The notes under the pieces were generated by a model. It saw only the letters and a list, made by a program, of their open reading frames with translations. It searched no databases and was not told where the DNA came from. The position numbers were made by a program, and so were the translations under genes. Shown here piece after piece: positions 6,321 through 24,373 of a stretch of DNA of 64,000 bases. This DNA comes from a virus. Lineage: Duplodnaviria > Caudoviricetes. The stretch covers positions 96,001 through 160,000 of the IMG/VR virus record IMGVR_UViG_3300032319_000936; one strand, 5' to 3'. Numbering within the stretch: position 1 is the first letter of the stretch; the number at the start of each line of letters is the position of its first letter.

Positions 6321-7019
6321 TTAAAATCCGGATAGCCAATTTTTTCTTGCCTGCGAAGATTTACCAAAAGCCATTTCCAGACTAGATTTTGATTCAGGAT
6401 CAGGTGATATCTGTAAAATTCTTCTGTTTCTCATAACAAAATCCCAATCGTCCAAAGATAATGAACCTAATCCCTTAAGGTATCTTACATTTTTAAGATC
6501 CGAAGAAGATGCTCTCTTGAATTCATCTAATGAGAAGTAATATTTTTTAACCCTATCCCCAGAACTAACTAGAGGCGTTTCCAATATATGTAGCCTCCCC
6601 TGTCCTACTATCCACGGGAACCAAGTATAGAAAAGATTAACCAGCAAGCTAGTAATGTGGGATCCATCAGGATCCTGGTCTGTTGATATGACTATGTTTT
6701 TAAATGGTCCATCGAAACTCTTCTCCTCGGGGTCAAGATTCAATATTTGCATTAGCTCCAATATCTCCCTATTTGAAGATAGATCCCCGAGTGATCTTGC
6801 ATTCTTGATCTTTCCCTTTAATGCATATACACCGTCTTTCTTAGGATCCCTCTTTTGCAAAAGTGAACCCATAGCAGAATTATGAGACACCACACCATTA
6901 GCTAAAACAAAGCTTTCGTCCTCTTCCACAGTAAGATCTATACAATTATAAACACCCGAATTTTCTATTTTCTCTATTTCCACTATCTGGAAAAAATTTT
7001 CATGTTGTTCAGTTAACAT
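6321..7019 (-). CDS. Topoisomerase II B subunit, C-terminal piece: split-intein IntC (47 aa) plus TOPRIM C-extein (185 aa)
   Basis: DLTVEEDESFVLANGVVSHN|SAMG, then LKGKIKN, STDQDPDGSHI (DxD) and RYLKGLGS. Confidence 0.93.
   Translation of the reverse strand: MLTEQHENFFQIVEIEKIENSGVYNCIDLTVEEDESFVLANGVVSHNSAMGSLLQKRDPKKDGVYALKGKIKNARSLGDLSSNREILELMQILNLDPEEKSFDGPFKNIVISTDQDPDGSHITSLLVNLFYTWFPWIVGQGRLHILETPLVSSGDRVKKYYFSLDEFKRASSSDLKNVRYLKGLGSLSLDDWDFVMRNRRILQISPDPESKSSLEMAFGKSSQARKNWLSGF
6879..7019 (-). mobile_element. Split intein C-half (IntC) of topoisomerase B subunit
   Basis: Block F (CIDLTVEEDESFVL) and block G (NGVVSHN) followed by Ser+1. Confidence 0.92.
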
Positions 7020-7129
7020 ATTGTTGATTTTATTTTATTAATTGATTCTTCTATTAAAGAATCATATTTCCACCGATCCCTGACCAAATTTTTCCTGTCC
7101 GTTTCTATTTTTATTGAATATCCAGCTGA

Positions 7130-7639
7130 TTAAATATGATCAAAAACACATATCAAATCTCCATTTTTTATTTCAGAAGCTTTTCTCATTATAAAAGAGC
7201 TTTCTTTTTGGAGATAAATGCAATATTTGTGATCGTCACTGCATTTATAAAACGAGCCATCTTCTAGGATTAACCCGTTATGATATTTTTCATCACCAGT
7301 TTTAAATTTATCGGTCACCTCTAAATTTCCAATAAAATTTCCCAGACTAGATTTAACAATACAGTGTTTTTCTGCGTCCATATCCGAGACAGACAGAAAT
7401 GAAAAAACTGAAGATATTTTATCAAAGACATAATATCTGTGAGCCTTCGATTGGACTAATTGTGTTCCATCTTTTAGTGTTACAGTAAAACACTCCTTTA
7501 ATTTTCTTTGCTTATTTACGATCTTTCTGAATCTATTATTGTGTGTTATTACATCATCACCAAGCAAAACTTCCTTCATGGGTAGATTCAAAAGCTCGCC
7601 GTCTCTCCAAACATTTATTTTTTCATCCTCGTGTATACA
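7130..7639 (-). mobile_element. Split intein N-half (IntN) of topoisomerase B subunit
   Basis: Cys1 directly after EGL, then GDDVITHN and two block-B-like segments (DGTQLVQSKAH and DGSFYKCSDDH). Confidence 0.9.
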
Positions 7640-8869
7640 TAGCCCCTCTACTATAAATAGATTTTCCGCTTTAGAAGCTGTTGGAGGGAAATACTTATGA
7701 GAAAATTTTATCTTTACATTCTTTTTTTCCCTTCTAATCTTCTTTATCTCAGCATCTTTTCTTCTCTCATCGACAGATTTCTTTATTGATTTAAAGGTTT
7801 CTGTTCTGTAGAATTTCTGTAAGCCAGCTTCGAAGCTTCTAACGATGGTTGGCTCAACCTCTTCTCTCTTACTTACAAATTTAGTTTTATTCTGATCGCC
7901 AAATCTTACTAAACCGGGAGATAAATTAAGAATCAGTAGATGATCATAGAAGTGATGACCTAGGCTATCCTCAAGTTCACCATTGATTCTATCCATAACT
8001 ATCTTCTGATGAATACCCGTGCATATTGCAGAGTTCACAAAAGCAAAAGAAGAAGTAGATTCACTCTTTGGCCATATTAGAAGTTCCCCTATTTGACACT
8101 TGTATGAGAATCCCGGTGATAAAGCTGAGTTAATCAAGGTCTTGTTACCGTCCCATATAAACTCTATGTTAATGCTCTCGGTCTTTTTTTCGGTTTCTAA
8201 TACCCTCTTTTTCAGGACCAGTGTGGACCATAGAATATCACGGTCCCATTTATTATTATCGAATATCTTAGGCAGCGGGGAAAAGCTAACCCTTGTTCCG
8301 GTTTCCCTGCTAGAAGACTTCGTCTTTACATCAGGTTTAGATGCTAAAAAATTCTCCCACCTTTGAAAATATGTTTCTTGACTATTTGTTGTCTCTATCT
8401 CAAAGAATGACGACAAAGCGTTAACAAGACTAACTCCCATCCCGTTGGTACCAATTAGCGATTCCTCTATATCATCGTTATCGAAATTAGAACCAGCTCT
8501 TAGCATGGATACTGCGGTCTCAACGTTGGATAGCCCACTCTTTTTGTTCTTTTTAGATCCATTGAGAAATCCGTCACCTGAATCTGTAATGGAGATTGCA
8601 TTGGATTTGGTATCGATCTCGACTGTGATTTTCCTCATCGGAGATTTCATTCTCTTGGCCTCGTCGACGCAATTAGAAAAAACCTCATCGAAAAGTTTGT
8701 ACATACCAACAGAGATTGGTCGGGGTTGTGATTTAATACACTTACCCTCTTCCACTATAGGTACCTGTTCTTCCGACGTTTTTACACTACCAACATATAT
8801 GGTAGGTCTAGCCAAAATGTGTTCAAAGTCACTGAGGACTTGTATTTCTTTACTCGGTTTTGTAGCCAT
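7130..8869 (-). CDS. Topoisomerase II B subunit (gp39/GyrB-like), N-terminal piece: GHKL ATPase/transducer (410 aa) plus split-intein IntN (169 aa)
   Basis: EHILARPTIYVGS, EVFSNCVDE, DSGDG, AGSNF, GTNGMG, QNKTK, then FIVEGL|CIHEDE intein start and a TAA stop. Confidence 0.93.
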   Translation of the reverse strand: MATKPSKEIQVLSDFEHILARPTIYVGSVKTSEEQVPIVEEGKCIKSQPRPISVGMYKLFDEVFSNCVDEAKRMKSPMRKITVEIDTKSNAISITDSGDGFLNGSKKNKKSGLSNVETAVSMLRAGSNFDNDDIEESLIGTNGMGVSLVNALSSFFEIETTNSQETYFQRWENFLASKPDVKTKSSSRETGTRVSFSPLPKIFDNNKWDRDILWSTLVLKKRVLETEKKTESINIEFIWDGNKTLINSALSPGFSYKCQIGELLIWPKSESTSSFAFVNSAICTGIHQKIVMDRINGELEDSLGHHFYDHLLILNLSPGLVRFGDQNKTKFVSKREEVEPTIVRSFEAGLQKFYRTETFKSIKKSVDERRKDAEIKKIRREKKNVKIKFSHKYFPPTASKAENLFIVEGLCIHEDEKINVWRDGELLNLPMKEVLLGDDVITHNNRFRKIVNKQRKLKECFTVTLKDGTQLVQSKAHRYYVFDKISSVFSFLSVSDMDAEKHCIVKSSLGNFIGNLEVTDKFKTGDEKYHNGLILEDGSFYKCSDDHKYCIYLQKESSFIMRKASEIKNGDLICVFDHI

Positions 8870-12917: not shown

Positions 12918-13694
12918 TTAAGATCCACAAGCAATACATCCATCAGGTCCACCGTCAAGGCTACATACTATATCGGAAGTTAATTTAGCGGCCAAATCAG
13001 CTAGCTCCTGTGAATTGTGAGTGAGTTCCTCAGGTAGCTCCGTTACAACTTTCTTAACTTCGTATTGCGGAACTGTTTCAATAACAGGGGCTTTAACCTC
13101 TTCTGTCTTTTGTGTCTTATATTTAGATAGATCAACACCAAGTCCTGAAAGAGCATCAGCTGCTGATTTAGTTCTCAAATAGTACATACCGGTCTTTAAC
13201 CCGATCTCCCAACTATGGAAGTGAGCAGCTGTCAATTTAGCAGCATTCACTCCCTCAATGAACAAGTTCATAGACTGTGATTGGCAGATAAATCTTCCTC
13301 TGTCTGCTGACATGTCCAATAGATCTTTTTGCTTGATCTCCCATACAGTTTTATAAACCTCCTTAATATCGTCTGGTATGCTAGGAATGTTCTGTACCGA
13401 TCCCTTGTTGATTATAATCATATTCTTCATATCCTCACCCCAGAGGTCCAGATTTATAAGATCTTTCACAAGATGCTTATTGACAACTACAAATTCTCCG
13501 GATAGTGTTCTTCTGGTGTAGATATTAGATGTGAACGGCTCAAATGCCTCATTGTTCCCCATTATCTGAGCTGTGTTGTGTGAAACCATACCGTTTTCCA
13601 ACAAGTATTCGTTAACATCCGGCACTTCAAGATCCCAAGTTGATCTTTCTTGGTCTGCCTTTCTGATTGATTTTATTTTTATCGTCTGTTTCAT
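12918..13694 (-). CDS. nrdA: Ribonucleotide reductase alpha (NrdA) piece 3: IntC-2 (40 aa) plus C-terminal extein (218 aa)
   Basis: WDLEVPDVNEYLLENGMVSHN|TAQIMGNNEAFEP...QSQSMN...LKTGMYYLR...CIACGS. Confidence 0.95.
   Translation of the reverse strand: MKQTIKIKSIRKADQERSTWDLEVPDVNEYLLENGMVSHNTAQIMGNNEAFEPFTSNIYTRRTLSGEFVVVNKHLVKDLINLDLWGEDMKNMIIINKGSVQNIPSIPDDIKEVYKTVWEIKQKDLLDMSADRGRFICQSQSMNLFIEGVNAAKLTAAHFHSWEIGLKTGMYYLRTKSAADALSGLGVDLSKYKTQKTEEVKAPVIETVPQYEVKKVVTELPEELTHNSQELADLAAKLTSDIVCSLDGGPDGCIACGS
13575..13694 (-). mobile_element. Split intein 2 of NrdA, C-half
   Basis: Blocks F/G ending HN, followed by Thr+1. Confidence 0.93.
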
Positions 13695-13734
13695 ATTTGT
13701 AATTTATTTTATTTTTTGCCAACCAAAATATGAA

Positions 13735-14073
13735 TTATCCCTTGATTATTTCATCATTCTCAGTGAGTTCATCAGCTCTAACCCAAACTTCCTCCCCATT
13801 TCTCTGACAAAGGAATCTGTGGTTGTGAGAGCATGTTACCACGTTACCATCCTCGGTCTCTATTTCAATAACAGGGACTTTGCCATTATAGAATATTTTT
13901 TCACATTCCTTAGTTCCGAATCGTGTCTCAACTTTAACTTTATCGTCAAAGAAAACCCACTGTTGCTGGCCAGATTCTTCTATCGATTTCCAGTCTATAT
14001 TTCTCTCTTCTAATATTTCTATATAGGACTTAACTCCACGATCGGTTCTGATTCTTGATTCAGGCACAAGACA
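13735..14073 (-). mobile_element. Split intein 2 of NrdA, N-half
   Basis: CLVPESRIRTDRG block A, ETEDGNVVTCSHNHRF block B, WVRADELTENDEI block N4, then TAA. Confidence 0.93.
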
Positions 14074-15279
14074 ACTGGCTGTAGGCATGGGTGCCAGGAG
14101 TAAAGAGTTTCTAACACCGTGTTTCATAACATCCTTTCTCAATTTACCCCAATCCCATCTCCCTGAAAGATCATCATCATTGAAACCCCACATATTGAAC
14201 TGGAATTCTCCTTTGCTAATCGGTGAGCCCTCAAATGATTCGTATGCACCATTAGCTTTTGCTAGATCTTTAGAAGCTGTGCATGATGCAAAATAGATTG
14301 TCTCAAAAATATCAGAGTTTATCTTTCTGGCTTCTTCCGACGTGAATCCGATACCCATGATAGCATATAAATCTGCCAATCCCTGGATACCTATTCCGAT
14401 TGGTCTGTGCTTCGTATTGGATCTCTTGGTCTCCTCTGTTGGATAGTAGTTAACATCAATAACCTGATTTAGATTAAGTGTTGTCTGATATGCCACCTTA
14501 TAAAGCTCATCGTGATCAACGTCACACTTGCCTCTTATTAACTTCGTTGTTCTAGCGTCGGTCGACTTTAAGAACTTGTTAACTGGAATGGATGCAAGGT
14601 TACAAACAGCTTGTTCCTCCTTAGAAGTAACCTCCATGATCTCGGTACATAAATTAGAACTCTTGATTGTGCCGATATTCTTCTGGTTAGATTTCTTATT
14701 CGCGTGGTCCTTGTATAGGATATAAGGAGTTCCGGTCTCGATTTGTGACTCAATTATCTTCGCCCAGAGATCTCTTGCTTTGAGTGTTTTTCTAGCCTTT
14801 CCAGCTTCCTCAGCAGCAATATAAGCTTGGTCGAAGGCATCTCCGTATAATTCCCAAATCCCTTCCACATCAGATGGAGAGAATAAAGACCATTCGCCAT
14901 TTTCTTTTACTCTCTTCATGAAGAGATCAGGTGTCCAAAGAGCCAAGAAAAGATCACGAGCTCTTCTTTCTTCCTTACCTGTATTCTTTCTAAGATCTAA
15001 GAAATCCTCAATGTCAGCATGCCAAGGCTCCATGTAGATAGCGAAGGATCCTTTTCTGCGGCCGCCCCCGTTATGCACTATTGAGATATCAGTAGAATAA
15101 TTTGGTACATCCTTAACTCTCAGATCATATAGATTAGAATCTGCTATCTCAGCTTTTTTAACTCCCTTTACCCTATTAAATTTTAATTTTTCTAAAGAAA
15201 GGCTAACTGATTCCTCTCTTATTTCCCCATCGATCTCAGGATGATGCAAAAAGACATTTTTAATTTTTCCCATTTTCAT
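13735..15279 (-). CDS. nrdA: NrdA piece 2: IntC-1 (70 aa) + central extein (332 aa) + IntN-2 (112 aa)
   Basis: ...IVHN|GGGRRKGSFAIYMEPWH...ETGTPY...SSNLCTEI (thiyl-radical Cys)...VCNLAS...RNSLLLAPMPTAS|CLVPES... Confidence 0.95.
   Translation of the reverse strand: MKMGKIKNVFLHHPEIDGEIREESVSLSLEKLKFNRVKGVKKAEIADSNLYDLRVKDVPNYSTDISIVHNGGGRRKGSFAIYMEPWHADIEDFLDLRKNTGKEERRARDLFLALWTPDLFMKRVKENGEWSLFSPSDVEGIWELYGDAFDQAYIAAEEAGKARKTLKARDLWAKIIESQIETGTPYILYKDHANKKSNQKNIGTIKSSNLCTEIMEVTSKEEQAVCNLASIPVNKFLKSTDARTTKLIRGKCDVDHDELYKVAYQTTLNLNQVIDVNYYPTEETKRSNTKHRPIGIGIQGLADLYAIMGIGFTSEEARKINSDIFETIYFASCTASKDLAKANGAYESFEGSPISKGEFQFNMWGFNDDDLSGRWDWGKLRKDVMKHGVRNSLLLAPMPTASCLVPESRIRTDRGVKSYIEILEERNIDWKSIEESGQQQWVFFDDKVKVETRFGTKECEKIFYNGKVPVIEIETEDGNVVTCSHNHRFLCQRNGEEVWVRADELTENDEIIKG
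15070..15279 (-). mobile_element. Split intein 1 of NrdA, C-half (followed by Gly+1)
   Basis: YDLRVKDVPNY block F and SIVHN block G; the next codon is GGG. Confidence 0.88.
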
Positions 15280-15280
15280 T

Positions 15281-16174
15281 TTATATTATCTCACTTTTTT
15301 TATTTTTTTCATCCCATATATGAAATTCAAATTTGAATCCCTTAAATACGCAAGACTCTTTTTTAGCTATGTTCTTTTCATAATCCAGTCTTAAACTATA
15401 ATCCGATTTAACTTCTACTATTCTATTTTCTGGAACTATATAGAGGTCAGGATAGTACTCCCTTTCAATCCCCTTAAAAAAATACACAATTGGATCATTC
15501 TCCTCAAATCCTATTTTTAAATCACTTCTTTTGTATTTTTTTAAAAATTCGGGTATAACAAATCTTTCATATCCCTGTACTCTTATCAATTCACCTTCAT
15601 GTGAAATAGTATAGGATTTGTAGGATTGTTCTTTTTTTCTTCTACATATGTTGGAACATGTTTTTCTAAATCCTTTGTTTGTTAATCTTTCTTTAGCTGG
15701 TTTCCCGCAAACTTCGCATTTAGGATGGTCCACCACATCATTCAAAAACATATGGATCATTATCCTTTTATCTGAGAAATTACTGTATCTGTTTTTTAAC
15801 TCCTCAATTAGAATATAATTCTCCATTAGCATCTGTGTAACTGAACCACATTTTTTTTGTTTTTCTAAACTATCCTCAGTAAGTGATTGTTTAAATTTAT
15901 CCAGTGTATCTACAAGAAATTTATCGCTCAATTCTTTATATTCGCCTTTGCTGTTATATTTTTTATAGGATCCTCTAAATTTCTTAAATCCTAATTTATC
16001 TCTAGGTACTTCGTGCAATCCATTCTCATACAAATAGGAAATTTCTTCGTACGGTAACCCATAGAATCCCATCTCTTTAGACCACTCTATGATATTTAAA
16101 GTCTTATCCGGATAATGCGAGGACATGTACGAATATTTTCTGAATTTTCCAGATTTGTCTTCTTCCATAGTCAT
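15281..16174 (-). CDS. Free-standing putative homing endonuclease (Zn-finger plus PD-(D/E)xK domain) between split-intein halves
   Basis: CEVCGKP...TCSNIC zinc motif and YYPDLYIVPENRIVEVKS. It is located between IntN-1 and IntC-1 and has its own GATATATA motif at 16190-16197. Confidence 0.8.
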   Translation of the reverse strand: MTMEEDKSGKFRKYSYMSSHYPDKTLNIIEWSKEMGFYGLPYEEISYLYENGLHEVPRDKLGFKKFRGSYKKYNSKGEYKELSDKFLVDTLDKFKQSLTEDSLEKQKKCGSVTQMLMENYILIEELKNRYSNFSDKRIMIHMFLNDVVDHPKCEVCGKPAKERLTNKGFRKTCSNICRRKKEQSYKSYTISHEGELIRVQGYERFVIPEFLKKYKRSDLKIGFEENDPIVYFFKGIEREYYPDLYIVPENRIVEVKSDYSLRLDYEKNIAKKESCVFKGFKFEFHIWDEKNKKSEII

Positions 16175-16219
16175 TGAATATTTTTAATTTATATATCAGA
16201 CCAGGGCGGAGTTTTTATA

Positions 16220-16543
16220 TTAAAAGCTTAGCAAAATATCCTCGCCGGTAATATTTTTTGCCTCTATCCATTCTGGATTTATGGTTCCAGATTCGAATTT
16301 AATCTCTATATTTTCTATGAGATTTCCACCCTTAATGCATAGAAATAAATGGTCCTCGGTAACTATATTTTTACCACCATCTGTTTCTATTTCGACCATT
16401 ATTTTATCTGATGATCTTGTGACTATCTTTTCTTCAACCAAATGATATTCGCCATCGGAAGAAAGTACTAGATCACCCGCTTCGATCTCTTCTATCTTTT
16501 TATCACCTCCACTAACTCTAATTAGGGTCTCACCAATAAAACA
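16220..16543 (-). mobile_element. Split intein 1 of NrdA, N-half
   Basis: CFIGETLI block [17 protein letters not shown] block B (TxxH), [13 protein letters not shown], then TAA. Confidence 0.92.
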
Positions 16544-17407
16544 CTGATCTACGTACCTCGCAGTCTCATTAAAAACTCTTAGCATCGGTATAATACCATT
16601 GGAATTACCATTTGTACCTTTGATGTAAGATCCTGTGCTTCTAATGTTATGAATAGCCAATCCTATTCCTCCTGCATTCTGTGAAATAACAGCAACATCT
16701 GATAATGTCTTGTAAATACCAGGAATTGAATCATCGTCCATCATTAACAGAAAGCAAGACGAAAGCTGAGGTTTCTTAGTACCGGAATTAAACAGGGTTG
16801 GTGTTGCATGTGTCATCATGTGGTTAGAAAGAAGCTCGTAAGTTTTAATAACGTTCTTCATATCATCTCCCCATATACCAGCGGCAACACGCATATACAT
16901 GTGCTGTGGTGTTTCTGCTACCTCACCGTTTGTTTTTAACAGGTAACTTTTCTCGAGGGTCTTAAAGCCAAAATACTCAAAATCAAAATCTCTCTCGTGA
17001 AGTATTGCACTATCCAGCTTGTTTTTATTCTGCATTACAACCTGATAGGTTTTTTCGCTAATCATCCCAGCTGGCTGATTAGTAACAGGATCTATGTAAT
17101 TATAAAGAGTCTCTATAGTATCTGAGAATTTCTTCTTTGTTGTTTTGTGCAGTCTAGAAACTGCAATTCTAGAAGCTAGAATGGAATGGTCAGGATGCTT
17201 TGGTATCATGGAAGCAGCTGTCTCAGCTGCTAAGGTGTCCAACTCCTGAGTGGATATACCATCATAGATTCCCGCGATTACCTTCTGGGAGATACCCACA
17301 GGGTCAACTAGGTCCTGGTTTAGACCATAGGTCATCTTTCTAATTCTATTAGAAACTTTCTCAAATCTCACTGGTTCTTTAGAACCGTCTCTCTTAATTA
17401 CTTGCAT
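16220..17407 (-). CDS. nrdA: NrdA piece 1: ATP-cone and N-terminal extein (288 aa) + IntN-1 (107 aa)
   Basis: [11 protein letters not shown] cone, [38 protein letters not shown]|CFIGET. Confidence 0.95.
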
Positions 17408-17425: not shown

Positions 17426-18415
17426 TTAGAAATCTGTATCAAACCCAAATGGATCGTCCTCGCTTTTATTCATGATACCCGCTTTCTGATACTCCGAGAC
17501 CCTCTTTTCAAAAAAGTTCGACTTTCCCTGTAATGCTATATTAGCCATGAAATCGAATGGATTTTCAGAATTGTAAACTCTTGAGCAGCCAAGGTCTACT
17601 AATAGTCTATCTGTCACAAATTCAAGATACTGTATCATTAATTCAGAGTTCATACCAATTAGTCTAACTGGAAGTGACTCTGTTATGAATTCCTTCTCAA
17701 TTTCCAAAGCGCTGGTGAGAATTTCTTTTATTCTATCTGGAGAAACCTTATTGATGATGTGATTGTTGTGCAAATGTACAGCAAAATCGCAATGCATTCC
17801 CTCGTCTCTTGAGATTAGCTCATTAGAAAACGAAAGGCCTGGCATTAACCCTCTTTTCTTTAGCCAGAAAATAGAGCAGAATGAACCAGAGAAGAAAATT
17901 CCTTCCACAGCTGCAAAAGCAATAAGTCTCTCCTGGAAATGTGGTGAATCGATCCACTTTAGAGCCCATTCTGCTTTTTTCTTAACAGCTGGGATTGTAT
18001 CAATAGCTTTGAAAAGCATATTTTTTTCTTCCTGCTCCTGAATATAGGTATCAATCAACAAGGAGTAAGTCTCGCTATGGATATTTTCCATCATGATCTG
18101 AAACCCATAGAAGAACTTGGCTTCAGAATATTGAACCTCTTTAACGAAGTTCTCCGCTAGATTTTCATTCACTATACCATCTGAGGCAGCGAAGAAAGCT
18201 AAGATATTCTTAACGAAATATTTCTCATCCTCATTAAGAACGTTTCTCCAGTCGTTTAAATCCTGAGATAGGTCTATCTCTTCCGCAGTCCATATGCAAG
18301 CCTGCTGCTTTTTATAAAGATCCCATAAATCTGGATGCTCTATAGGGAATATAACGAACCTATTTGGGTTCTCCTGGAGGATCTTTTCCCCATAGGAATA
18401 TACTGAATTTTCCAT
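17426..18415 (-). CDS. nrdB: Ribonucleotide reductase class Ia beta subunit
   Basis: [47 protein letters not shown]. Confidence 0.97.
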
Positions 18416-18976: not shown

Positions 18977-20395
18977 CTATTTAGAGGAATTTTCTGATTC
19001 TTTTTTTATTAATTTTTCGAGTCTATCGATTTCGATCTGTAGAGCTAACATTTTGTCCTTTGTAGCTCTTCTTTTTGAGTAAAGATCGCTAACTATGCCC
19101 CTTAATATAGGCTCTTCATCTTCCCCTCCGAAATATGCTCCGGATGAAGTTTTAACCCAACTGTCCTTCGGAGTTAATATGCTCTTACCCTTATAGACCT
19201 CCGGGGATATACCCCATTGAACAATTGTATTTGGATACAGGGAGGCAAAGTCATAACAAGCTATCCATTCGTGCAATCCCGCTATTGGCTCCTTAACATA
19301 TCCACCTGCAAATTTAACTGCCTGCTCTTCTTTCCTCTCGTTAACAAATACCTGTTTTCTTTCTAGGAACTTTCTGAGCATCATGCTCTCTGTTGACCAA
19401 ACTGGGGAAAGTGCTCTATTGATTTCTACGCCTGTTACCAATGCTATCTTAAAGAAAGTCTGTAAGGTCTTTAGCTTCTGATCTATATAATGAACAAGAG
19501 CACAATCGACTGCGTTATAGTAGATAAAGTCTTCAAAATTAGATTGATATAGATCACGGAGAGTTCCGTTATATGAGATCTTCTTGAGTCCTATAGCTTT
19601 TTCAGCAACATAATCCAATCTATTGCTTTCCTTGATTTTAATAACTCTATCCCATTTCTTATAGATATCCAAATAATCGACCATTAGTATGTGTTGGGGC
19701 AACTGATTCTTTCCTATTAGAGTTCGGGATGGCGATATCATCTTGGGGTCTATTCCTAGCTTCTTTGCACGGTTTATCAGATATGGCCAGTCGTACCCTA
19801 GCCAGTTCCATCCTGTAATAAATGGCATCTTCGAGCCTATGTCCTTAAAGAAAGTATACAGCATATCATACTCGCTTTCAAATTGCTTGTATTTAAAGCT
19901 CCACTCGTCACCGGTTTTTTCGAAGTAGCTATTCAGCTTATTATGAATGGAAACTTGTTGCTCCTGAGTTAGAGGGTCTAGTCCTAAAACAATAAGCTTA
20001 CACTTATCCGTTGCAATACCGATTGATAAAACCCTATTCTTTGTGTTCTCAGTATCTAACGCATCAGCCATCTCATCCGTGATCTCAACCTCGATATCGA
20101 GAAAGTATTTCTTTGGTGTTTGATACTCCCAAAGCGGTGATGTTATGTTGCGATCTGACTCTTCCAGCATTTGAGCCATTCTATACTTATCGTATCTCTC
20201 AGAAGGAGCCTTTTTAACTGGTGCACCTGTCCAGTCTTTCCATTCTGGGTCTTTTTTTCTGTCATTAGGATAACACTTTGACCAAACAAATCTCTCCTCT
20301 TCAGGAACAGGAATGTGCAAAAAAACTAGATCACCCTCATCACTGAAATGAGAAACGTTCAAATACGTTCCTTTATTTTCTATGTCTACTATCAT
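18977..20395 (-). CDS. Family B DNA polymerase, N-terminal subunit only (exonuclease plus motif A)
   Basis: LDIE (ExoI), GWNWLGYDWPY (ExoII), YNAVD (ExoIII), FAGGYV and YDFASLYP (motif A). It ends in the fingers helix without KxxxNSxYG or YxDTDS. Confidence 0.9.
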   Translation of the reverse strand: MIVDIENKGTYLNVSHFSDEGDLVFLHIPVPEEERFVWSKCYPNDRKKDPEWKDWTGAPVKKAPSERYDKYRMAQMLEESDRNITSPLWEYQTPKKYFLDIEVEITDEMADALDTENTKNRVLSIGIATDKCKLIVLGLDPLTQEQQVSIHNKLNSYFEKTGDEWSFKYKQFESEYDMLYTFFKDIGSKMPFITGWNWLGYDWPYLINRAKKLGIDPKMISPSRTLIGKNQLPQHILMVDYLDIYKKWDRVIKIKESNRLDYVAEKAIGLKKISYNGTLRDLYQSNFEDFIYYNAVDCALVHYIDQKLKTLQTFFKIALVTGVEINRALSPVWSTESMMLRKFLERKQVFVNERKEEQAVKFAGGYVKEPIAGLHEWIACYDFASLYPNTIVQWGISPEVYKGKSILTPKDSWVKTSSGAYFGGEDEEPILRGIVSDLYSKRRATKDKMLALQIEIDRLEKLIKKESENSSK

Positions 20396-22070: not shown

Positions 22071-23372
22071 TTATCCCTTAACCTCCTCAAACTCAACCTC
22101 TTCAGCTTCCGTGCTTGCAGAGCTAGTGGTTTCTCCAGCTTCGCCGGGGTTAGCTTGCTCCTGAGCATAAACTTTAGTGGAGATTTCTTGGAGTGCCTCG
22201 ACTAGATCCTTGGTGCTAGATTCCATCTTTTCAACATCCTCACCTTTTATGGTCTCCTTAGCGGACTCTATCATAGAATTAATCTTAGCTCTTTCCTCCT
22301 CAGATGTCTTTTCCTCAAAGTCTTTAACCATTTTTTCAGCTTGGAAAATTAAGCCATCCAACTCATTCTTAACCTGGGATAGCTTAAGTCTTTCTTTATC
22401 TGCTTTCTCGTTAGCTAAAGCGTCGTCTTTCATCTTTTTGATTTCATCCTCTGATAGCTTATTACCAGCTTCAATCTTGATGTTCTGCTCTTTACCTGTT
22501 CCCTTGTCCTTAGCAGAAACACTAATGATACCGTTAGCATCAATATCAAAGGTAACTTCAATCTGAGGAACGCCTCTTGGAGCAGGAGGGACATCAGTTA
22601 GCATGAATCTTCCTAGAGTCTTGTTATCTGAAGCCATGGGTCTTTCACCCTGTAAAACATGGATTTCCACATTTGCCTGGTTATCAACAGCAGTAGAGAA
22701 TGACTCGCTTTTTCTAATAGGAATAGTTGAGTTAGATTCAATCAATTTGGTGAATACACCTCCCATTGTTTCAATACCTAAAGAAAGCGGAGTAACATCA
22801 AGCAAAAGAACGTCTGTGATTTCTCCTTTTAAAACTGCTCCCTGAACTGCTGCCCCAATAGCAACAACCTCATCGGGATTCACGCTCTTATTTGGCTTCT
22901 TACCAAATAGCTTTTCTACTTCCTCTTGAACCTTAGGAATTCTTGTTGATCCACCAACCAATAGAATCTCATCTATTTCAGAAACTTTAAGTTTGGAATC
23001 TTTGATAGCTTTTCTACAAGGGGCAAGTGTCTTCTGAATTAAATCGTCAATCATTTGCTCAAATTTAGCTCTTGAAAGTTTCCCTACAAAGTGCTTAGGT
23101 CCATCTGAAAGAGCGCTTAGATAAGGTAGGTTAATTTCTGTTTCTGATGAGTTCGATAATTCTATTTTCGCCTTCTCAGCAGCTTCTCTAATACGTTGAT
23201 AAGCCATTGGGTCCTTAGAGGCATCTATTCCAGTTTGAGACTTGAACTCATCCACGATCCAATCAATAATCTTCTCATCGAAGTTGTCACCACCAAGATG
23301 TGTATCACCGTTAGTTGAAAGAACCTCAAATACACCGGAGCCTATCTCCAGGATCGATACGTCAAATGTACC
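22071..23372 (-). CDS. dnaK: DnaK (Hsp70) exon 2
   Basis: GTFDVSIL...[11 protein letters not shown]...LVGGSTRIP...[16 protein letters not shown]...; joins exon 1 to restore YDLGGGTFD (627 aa spliced). Confidence 0.95.

Positions 23373-24373
<1,001 letters not shown>

Follow-up and report, generated by a model that had tools for sequence, protein, structure and literature searches.

In this work, we analysed bases 96001-160000 of a 180,758-bp virus contig in IMG/VR (record IMGVR_UViG_3300032319_000936), a stretch of 64,000 nt hereafter called the window, focusing on its nrdA gene, which encodes the large subunit (NrdA) of a class Ia ribonucleotide reductase (RNR), the enzyme that supplies the precursors of DNA, and is distributed over three genes whose broken ends carry the halves of two split inteins. 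The contig, recorded as linear and with an estimated completeness of 66%, belongs to an uncultured freshwater phage. The genes of the window are densely packed on the minus strand, and nrdA lies inside a nucleotide-metabolism block in the order N-terminal part of the family B DNA polymerase gene (polB), dUTPase-like gene, nrdB, nrdA piece 1, a gene of 297 amino acids (aa), piece 2, piece 3 and adenylate-kinase-like gene. The three nrdA open reading frames (ORFs) are found on the minus strand at 16220-17407 (395 aa), 13735-15279 (514 aa) and 12918-13694 (258 aa), each closed by a TAA stop codon; pieces 1 and 2 are separated by 45 nt, the 297-aa gene and 1 nt (break 1), and pieces 2 and 3 by 40 nt (break 2). 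With the N- and C-terminal intein halves designated IntN and IntC and numbered by break, piece 1 is composed of extein residues 1-288 and IntN1 (289-395), piece 2 of IntC1 (1-70), extein (71-402) and IntN2 (403-514), and piece 3 of IntC2 (1-40) and extein (41-258). The features of the locus, in the direction of transcription, are the following:

17426-18415, minus strand: nrdB, the RNR small subunit gene, directly upstream of nrdA and on the same strand (PF00268, E 9e-109)
16544-17407, minus strand: extein of nrdA piece 1, residues 1-288, ending in RYVDQ, with the ATP-cone, the all-alpha domain and the start of the barrel including Cys216
16223-16543, minus strand: IntN1, 107 aa, beginning CFIGETLI (Cys1), with block B VTEDH (Hint and Hint_2 matches); its TAA stop is at 16220-16222
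16175-16219, minus strand: 45-nt spacer before the endonuclease gene, with no significant RNA fold (z -0.75)
15281-16174, minus strand: predicted endonuclease gene, 297 aa, DUF7487 (PF24308, E 3e-15)
15070-15279, minus strand: IntC1, 70 aa, ending ISIVHN, with Gly at +1 (PF14890, E 1.6e-4)
14074-15069, minus strand: extein of nrdA piece 2, residues 289-620 of the joined protein, GGGRRKG...PMPTAS, with the thiyl Cys427 and Cys444 (PF02867, E 1e-124)
13738-14073, minus strand: IntN2, 112 aa, beginning CLVPESRI (Cys1), with block B TCSHNH (PF14890, E 4e-10; TIGR01445); its TAA stop is at 13735-13737
13695-13734, minus strand: 40-nt spacer of break 2, without endonuclease gene
13575-13694, minus strand: IntC2, 40 aa, ending GMVSHN, with Thr at +1 (PF14890, positions 121-155)
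12921-13574, minus strand: extein of nrdA piece 3, residues 621-838, with YY 751-752 and CIACGS (PF02867 positions 390-523, E 8e-44)

When the intein parts are removed, the three exteins (288, 332 and 218 aa) join into a protein of 838 aa that aligns with the uninterrupted NrdA of another viral contig (L012) at 93.8% identity and with 0 gap columns, the junctions RYVDQ/GGGRRKG and PMPTAS/TAQIMG being exact (a slash marks a splice junction throughout). The joined protein displays the features of a class Ia NrdA, namely the ATP-cone, the all-alpha domain, the 10-stranded barrel, C216, C427 and C444, the tyrosine pair YY 751-752 and the C-terminal CIAC at 833-836. According to the Pfam and NCBIfam profiles, piece 1 holds the ATP-cone, the all-alpha domain and barrel positions 1-72, and the barrel continues with positions 69-392 on piece 2 and 390-523 on piece 3; each broken end has a Hint or intein match. 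The catalytic motifs are spread likewise, with C216 (SSCFL) on piece 1, C427 (NLCTE) and C444 on piece 2, and YY 751-752 and CIACGS 833 on piece 3. Thus, what an initial annotation of this DNA had described, i.e., an nrdA in three genes with these lengths, stops and spacers, matching split-intein halves at each break, a seamless class Ia product and essential residues distributed over three polypeptides, agrees to the residue with the ORF coordinates, the profile matches and the alignment. A second nrdA, the possibility of which that annotation had raised, was searched for on the 66% complete contig, and the 180,758 bp hold this nrdA only.

Intein 2 is a canonical class 1 intein, with Cys at residue 403 of piece 2 as its first residue, TCSH in block B, a GMVSHN terminus and Thr at +1. 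Its closest counterparts in cultured phages are inteins in the nrdA genes of Campylobacter phages (33-38% identity) and of a Klebsiella phage (30%). In relatives, break 2 contains an ORF of 323-424 aa (phrog_22677, function not assigned there) that is missing in the window; in the contigs L091, L096 and L097 this ORF has no Pfam match, and its C-terminal motifs make it a candidate that may be Vsr-like.

Intein 1 displays Cys1, VTEDH in block B and the terminal ISIVHN, and is followed by glycine (VHN/GGGRRKG), a point that the initial annotation had overlooked. Canonical splicing needs Cys, Ser or Thr at the +1 position. With Gly in this place, transesterification and, hence, canonical trans-splicing are impossible at joint 1, although the other residues of a class 1 intein (Cys1, VTEDH and His-Asn) are in place. 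The proposal that two splicing pairs rebuild NrdA remains plausible for the canonical joint 2, whereas at joint 1 the expected peptide YVDQGGGR could arise only by a non-canonical route.

The glycine is the usual state of the inteins at this site. All of the approximately 45 relatives with IntC1 have HN/GG(G), and the same site (RYVDQ/C...HN/GGG) also holds contiguous inteins in contigs from giant-virus metagenome-assembled genomes and from large phages, either as mini-inteins of 149-189 aa or as full-length forms of 345-363 aa, whose length suggests an endonuclease domain. Gly occupies +1 in 14 of the 17 contiguous inteins examined, the 345-363-aa forms included; a mini-intein of 152 aa with this Gly lies in L035. 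We also compared a profile made from IntC1 only, with no extein residues, with 1.84 billion representative proteins, and the best 63 hits were tabulated. Among these, 29 clusters were at the RNR site (23 with Gly and 6 with Ser at +1), and 33 hits were in other host proteins, where +1 was Ser, Cys or Thr except for one Ile and one Lys. No variation was seen at Cys1, the Thr and His of block B or the terminal His-Asn across 48 unique IntN and 38 unique IntC sequences, the most distant of them at 30-34% identity. In an unrooted tree of 14 rows, two forms with Ser at +1 share one clade (support 98/99). Regarding cultured phages, a tblastn search of IntC1 against 50,697 phage records matched the extein part only.

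IntC1 further displays a conserved N-terminal extension (consensus FLHHPExDGEIREES; window 15190-15260, minus strand; residues 8-30 of piece 2), which precedes the usual IntC strands and parts of which contact IntN1 in a model of the complex. This model of IntN1 with IntC1, made with ESMFold2, had an ipSAE of 0.85 compared to 0.21 for the best control, a pass that may reflect likeness to solved split inteins; for comparison, 58 of 80 solved complexes and 2 of 110 mismatched pairs attained this mark. The runs agreed in at least 90% of contacts, and the partner pLDDT was at least 72.

The IntN1 profile matches a bacterial intein-like (BIL) domain (2lwy, E 6.6e-7, among the best PDB matches) about as well as the gp41-1 intein (E 2.5e-7). 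BIL domains occur in bacterial proteins that are variable and non-essential, and are not known as mobile elements of a fixed conserved site. In its catalytic residues, intein 1 resembles the type-A BIL domains, which are HINT domains that begin with Cys, end in His-Asn and lack a nucleophile at +1 (Amitai 2003; Dassa 2004; Aranko 2013; PMC4031507). Unlike these, it occupies one conserved site of an essential phage and giant-virus enzyme, which is an intein-like context, it occurs in split, mini and full-length forms, it is accompanied by a putative homing endonuclease, and it matches gp41-1 equally well.

With Gly at +1 and the other catalytic residues invariant, joint 1 is left with two outcomes, ligation by aminolysis or a non-covalent association. 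The reading that we favour, with a probability of about 0.5, is that two unrelated mobile split inteins have each broken the only recognisable class Ia nrdA of this freshwater phage, that the gene is still used, and that joint 1 is ligated by aminolysis. In the proposed mechanism, IntN1 and IntC1 would dock pieces 1 and 2; the thioester at the N junction would still form and Asn cyclisation would still cut the C junction of intein 1, both steps being retained in view of the intact Cys1, TxxH and His-Asn; and the freed alpha-amine of the Gly would attack the Cys1 thioester, leaving a peptide bond. IntN2 and IntC2 would dock likewise and join pieces 2 and 3 by class-1 trans-splicing, with Cys1, TxxH, His-Asn and the Thr at +1, and the product would be a single chain of 838 aa. 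An attack of the amine freed by Asn cyclisation on the thioester is the route proposed for type-A BIL domains, the only published precedent that we found (PMC4031507, citing Dassa 2004 and Aranko 2013). As for joint 1 itself, we consider ligation by aminolysis somewhat the likelier outcome, since the long contiguous members of the clade also have Gly at +1, and RNR fragments that were left unligated by them would have nothing to hold them together.

Several points weigh against this reading. In type-A BIL domains the cleavage products dominate over the spliced product (PMC4031507), so that aminolysis may lack the efficiency that an abundant enzyme requires, and the NrdA of phage Aeh1, although split at another site, works without a peptide bond between its parts (PMC3045599). 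With the contig 66% complete, a further RNR gene of this phage is possible, and no RNA runs are listed among the sequencing runs with this stretch. Finally, the two intein pairs are alike in charge polarity (acidic in the tail of IntN, basic in the first strand of IntC), and their orthogonality is an expectation drawn only from their divergence (29% identity between the two IntN and 33% between the two IntC). Because the middle piece has the form IntC1-extein-IntN2, a cross-reaction between the pairs would cyclise it or skip a piece. The initial annotation had inferred that two mutually orthogonal pairs are needed; that they are different inteins stands, and that they do not cross-react is, at these identities, plausible.

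The rival that survives best is a minority possibility, albeit a serious one, according to which break 1 is never ligated. IntN1 and IntC1 would then be a tight docking module, both halves would probably be released from the exteins through hydrolysis of the thioester and cyclisation of the Asn, and the enzyme would contain a two-chain NrdA in which residues 1-288 are held non-covalently to the trans-spliced 289-838. The Gly at +1, which takes away the nucleophile for a branched intermediate, fits this rival, as do the predominance of cleavage in type-A BIL domains and the modelled docking of the intein halves. Its clearest parallel is the nrdA-a/mobE/nrdA-b locus of Aeh1 (Friedrich 2007; Crona 2010, PMC3045599), where nrdA is likewise split by a free-standing endonuclease gene and the active-site cysteines are on separate chains, and where NrdA-a and NrdA-b make a fully active RNR without splicing; however, that NrdA consists of two pieces with short tails instead of intein halves, and its break falls between Cys439 and Cys462 (E. 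coli numbering). The conservation of the N-side and C-side residues of intein 1 does not separate the two outcomes, as these residues are needed for cleavage as well. The docking explanation is opposed by the contiguous 345-363-aa inteins, which have the same Gly in well-conserved RNR genes of giant viruses and large phages, and whose excision without ligation would leave RNR fragments with no docking tag.

The remaining rivals are addressed by the occurrence of the locus in natural populations. The sequencing runs that hold the stretch come from 14 studies and are mostly recorded as freshwater metagenomes; Logan contigs from runs of four of these studies were aligned to the window, so that the evidence is at the contig level. 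Over the breaks, these contigs displayed no indels relative to the window. Two viral contigs from other metagenomes (L010 and L011) are 97-98% identical in DNA from nrdB through piece 1 and the inserted gene to piece 2, skip window positions 13575-14077, which comprise exactly intein 2 together with its stop and spacer, and continue from the codon of the Thr at +1; 3' of the intein-2 site, their identity is only 91%. The allele free of intein 2 has AGAA in place of 13575-14077, and reads GCT TCT/ACA GCT where the window has GCC AGT/TGT. Among the aligned runs, the joint lacking intein 2 (13574 to 14078, with AGAA between) was found in X2, X6 and X7, and the allele with intein 2 in X2 and X4. 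Run X2 also contains a joint from 15327 to 16202 that removes the endonuclease gene, and the contigs of X4 leave the window at 13717, with at least 555 nt of other DNA in the break-2 spacer that begins with an apparent ATG; this is probably the same split intein in a form with an endonuclease gene, resembling that of L091. In addition, the 395-aa and 514-aa pieces recur at 99-100% identity on several other contigs. Therefore, since independent contigs carry the same breaks and the element-free alleles differ by the exact element, the stops and spacers are not assembly artefacts, and natural populations are polymorphic for the presence of intein 2 and of the endonuclease gene, in some cases within one sample.

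The three-piece layout is shared by a more distant phage (L090), which allowed for a comparison of the elements with their host gene. The exteins are 64-66% identical to those of the window, compared to 69-75% for IntN1, the endonuclease, IntC1 and IntN2, and this better conservation of the intein parts and the endonuclease points to lateral spread. The ratios of nonsynonymous to synonymous substitution (dN/dS) relative to L090 were 0.09 for IntN1, 0.24 for IntC1 and 0.08 for the endonuclease; purifying selection acts on both inteins and on the endonuclease gene.

These data bear on a second rival, in which nrdA is decaying, overrun by selfish elements and inactive, and the phage uses the RNR of its host or another one of its own. 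The incomplete contig would leave room for such a gene, mobile elements abound in the genome (five inteins and a group I intron), and the nrdA of Campylobacter phages, which contains related inteins, has been described as degenerating (PMC3653736). Nevertheless, we regard this explanation as very improbable, given that the exteins align to an intact homologue without gaps, at 93.8% identity and with every catalytic motif kept, that the dN/dS of the inteins is 0.09-0.24, and that the architecture persists both at the extein identity of L090 and in at least seven clusters of middle pieces. As for a single nrdA ORF whose stops and spacers were introduced by faulty assembly or sequencing, or are bypassed by recoding, there is practically no room for it, as nothing was found in its favour and it is refuted, as far as contig-level data go, by breaks that other samples and studies reproduce without indels, by a conserved 297-aa gene in its own frame inside break 1, by ATG starts directly preceding the IntC halves, and by an intein-free allele differing by exactly the element; recoding and sequencing error had already been discounted in the initial annotation.

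That annotation had also reported a whole inserted gene at one of the breaks, which is indeed present in break 1, and missed its nature. The gene product is predicted to be a free-standing endonuclease of the PD-(D/E)XK superfamily. In an AF2 model (pLDDT 87.5), its C-terminal domain (residues 184-297) displays the restriction-endonuclease-like core with the D...(D/E)xK motif, and P242, D243, E254 and K256 are invariant across 16 homologues; a Cys-rich segment is found at residues 153-177. Structural matches obtained with VIA were TnsA (Z 9.2, root-mean-square deviation 2.7, 104 aligned residues), the catalytic domain of I-Bth0305I (Z 7.4), Vsr (Z 7.3) and, at Z of about 6.5, Holliday-junction resolvases (Hjc, Z 6.6). 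The core emerged only by VIA, as the sequence search of the PDB gave no match and plain Foldseek none at E <= 0.001. The match to phrog_3339, annotated as homing endonuclease, is weak, and 20 close relatives were found in the protein collection. We infer that this gene serves the mobility of the break-1 element, with a putative role in homing and no part in the assembly of the enzyme.

With a free-standing endonuclease as the inserted gene, break 1 has the published layout of fractured genes. In the layout described by Dassa et al. 2009 (PMC2677866; loci NrdA-1 to NrdA-7 and gp41-7), a split intein is accompanied by a spacer of 27-51 nt and a free-standing endonuclease gene between the halves. 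Break 1, with both parts on one strand, a 45-nt spacer and a free-standing endonuclease gene, corresponds to this arrangement, break 2 resembles gp41-7 in having a spacer and no endonuclease gene, and the host gene is, as in the NrdA loci, a phage-like class I RNR. On the other hand, each of the NrdA loci consists of two pieces, with the break immediately before the thiyl-radical Cys, whereas here two other sites (VDQ/GGG and PTAS/T) are occupied, the gene is in three pieces, and intein 1 has no +1 nucleophile. The endonuclease differs as well, as it belongs to the DUF7487 PD-(D/E)XK family with D...ExK, is not GIY-YIG and is not clearly of their Vsr-like family. Dassa et al. 2009 (PMC2677866) further describe regulatory hairpins upstream of the endonuclease gene; the three folds evaluated in the spacers here were no better than shuffled sequences (z -0.75, -1.69 and +0.22), and promoter-like and terminator-like sites were at chance level.

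The three-piece architecture was considered unusual in the initial annotation, a view that its distribution does not sustain: many phage contigs have it, a second combination of sites is in use, and a Klebsiella phage in culture has a multi-piece nrdA as well. Middle pieces of the type IntC1...IntN2 form at least seven clusters at 90% identity. The remaining combinations found were no intein (L012), intein 1 only (L010 and L011), split intein 2 only (L091 and L096), and a contiguous intein at site 1 together with split intein 2 (L092 and L094), while L097 has a different three-piece nrdA, interrupted at the thiyl-Cys site and at site 2. In the Klebsiella jumbo phage KP13-7 (genus Alcyoneusvirus; OP617745.1, 30877-36407), which is cultured, nrdA is in at least four ORFs with two split inteins. 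One of these is at the site equivalent to break 2 (SHN/TSSQ), with an endonuclease gene between the halves, and its IntN is 30% identical to IntN2; unlike here, the other is at the thiyl-Cys site, and the region equivalent to break 1 has an HNH ORF and no intein halves. In detail, the KP13-7 gene is broken after SCSQG by the HNH ORF, the split intein at the thiyl-Cys site is accompanied by a GIY-YIG gene, and the split intein IMPGE/C...SHN/TSSQ by an HNH gene. Most of these pieces are annotated as hypothetical proteins.

In the literature searched, which was incomplete, we found no natural gene split by two split inteins, no RNR intein with Gly at +1, and no paper on the nrdA pieces of KP13-7. 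Fractured genes are a known kind of arrangement, and the present case is well supported as observed; the glycine joint is the part most surprising to intein specialists.

Other genes of the contig are interrupted as well, bringing its inteins to five, three of them split and two contiguous. The third split intein is found in a type II topoisomerase (GHKL ATPase and Toprim domains) encoded in two ORFs within window 6321-8869 on the minus strand: the ORF at 7130-8869 ends with FIVEGL/C and a 169-aa IntN, and the ORF at 6321-7019 begins with a 47-aa IntC whose junction is VVSHN/SAMG, with the canonical Ser at +1; the break contains a 110-nt spacer and no endonuclease gene. The family B DNA polymerase is divided between two genes that lie about 20 kb from each other, the first (window 18977-20395, minus strand) with the exonuclease domain and the start of the polymerase, and the second (contig 92853-94541, minus strand) with the rest, including a contiguous mini-intein (YSDTDS/C...VHN/SNY); the broken ends of polB resemble helical tails and not intein halves. 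Outside the window, at contig 81653-83587 (minus strand), a putative thymidylate-synthase-like gene appears, from a reading of its sequence, to contain a full-length intein with a LAGLIDADG-type motif and the junction TVHN/CTIGYHF. A group I intron (Rfam RF00028, 50.6 bits, E 6.5e-10) at window 23406-23795, minus strand, sits between the Hsp70/DnaK ORFs 23780-24367 and 22071-23375.

The two nrdA pairs have a counterpart in engineered multi-fragment ligations (Pinto et al. 2020, PMC7090010), where a middle fragment of the form IntC(a)-cargo-IntN(b) also needs pairs that do not cross-react. Unlike those designs, nrdA is natural, and a third split intein is present in the same genome. With a middle fragment of this form, this phage would offer a natural three-fragment assembly in which the two nrdA pairs and the topoisomerase pair have been tuned by selection against cross-reaction, which is the kind of set sought by protein engineers. 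Moreover, alleles with and without intein 2 or the endonuclease gene coexist in the same lakes, giving a live view of how fractured genes originate and spread.

Beyond this locus, it is conceivable, at odds somewhat short of even, that the intein-1 clade as a whole, with its split, mini and full-length forms in phage and giant-virus RNR, routinely ligates by direct attack of the alpha-amine of the Gly on the Cys1 thioester, without a side-chain nucleophile at +1; in the present nrdA it would do so alongside an orthogonal canonical pair. If true, the clade would constitute a fourth mechanistic class of true inteins, at work in an enzyme that is essential, and would provide traceless split inteins of natural origin with a Gly as their only remnant. 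In either case the locus is informative, as either these inteins ligate at glycine, with a traceless chemistry, or an active RNR tolerates a permanent break in this loop.

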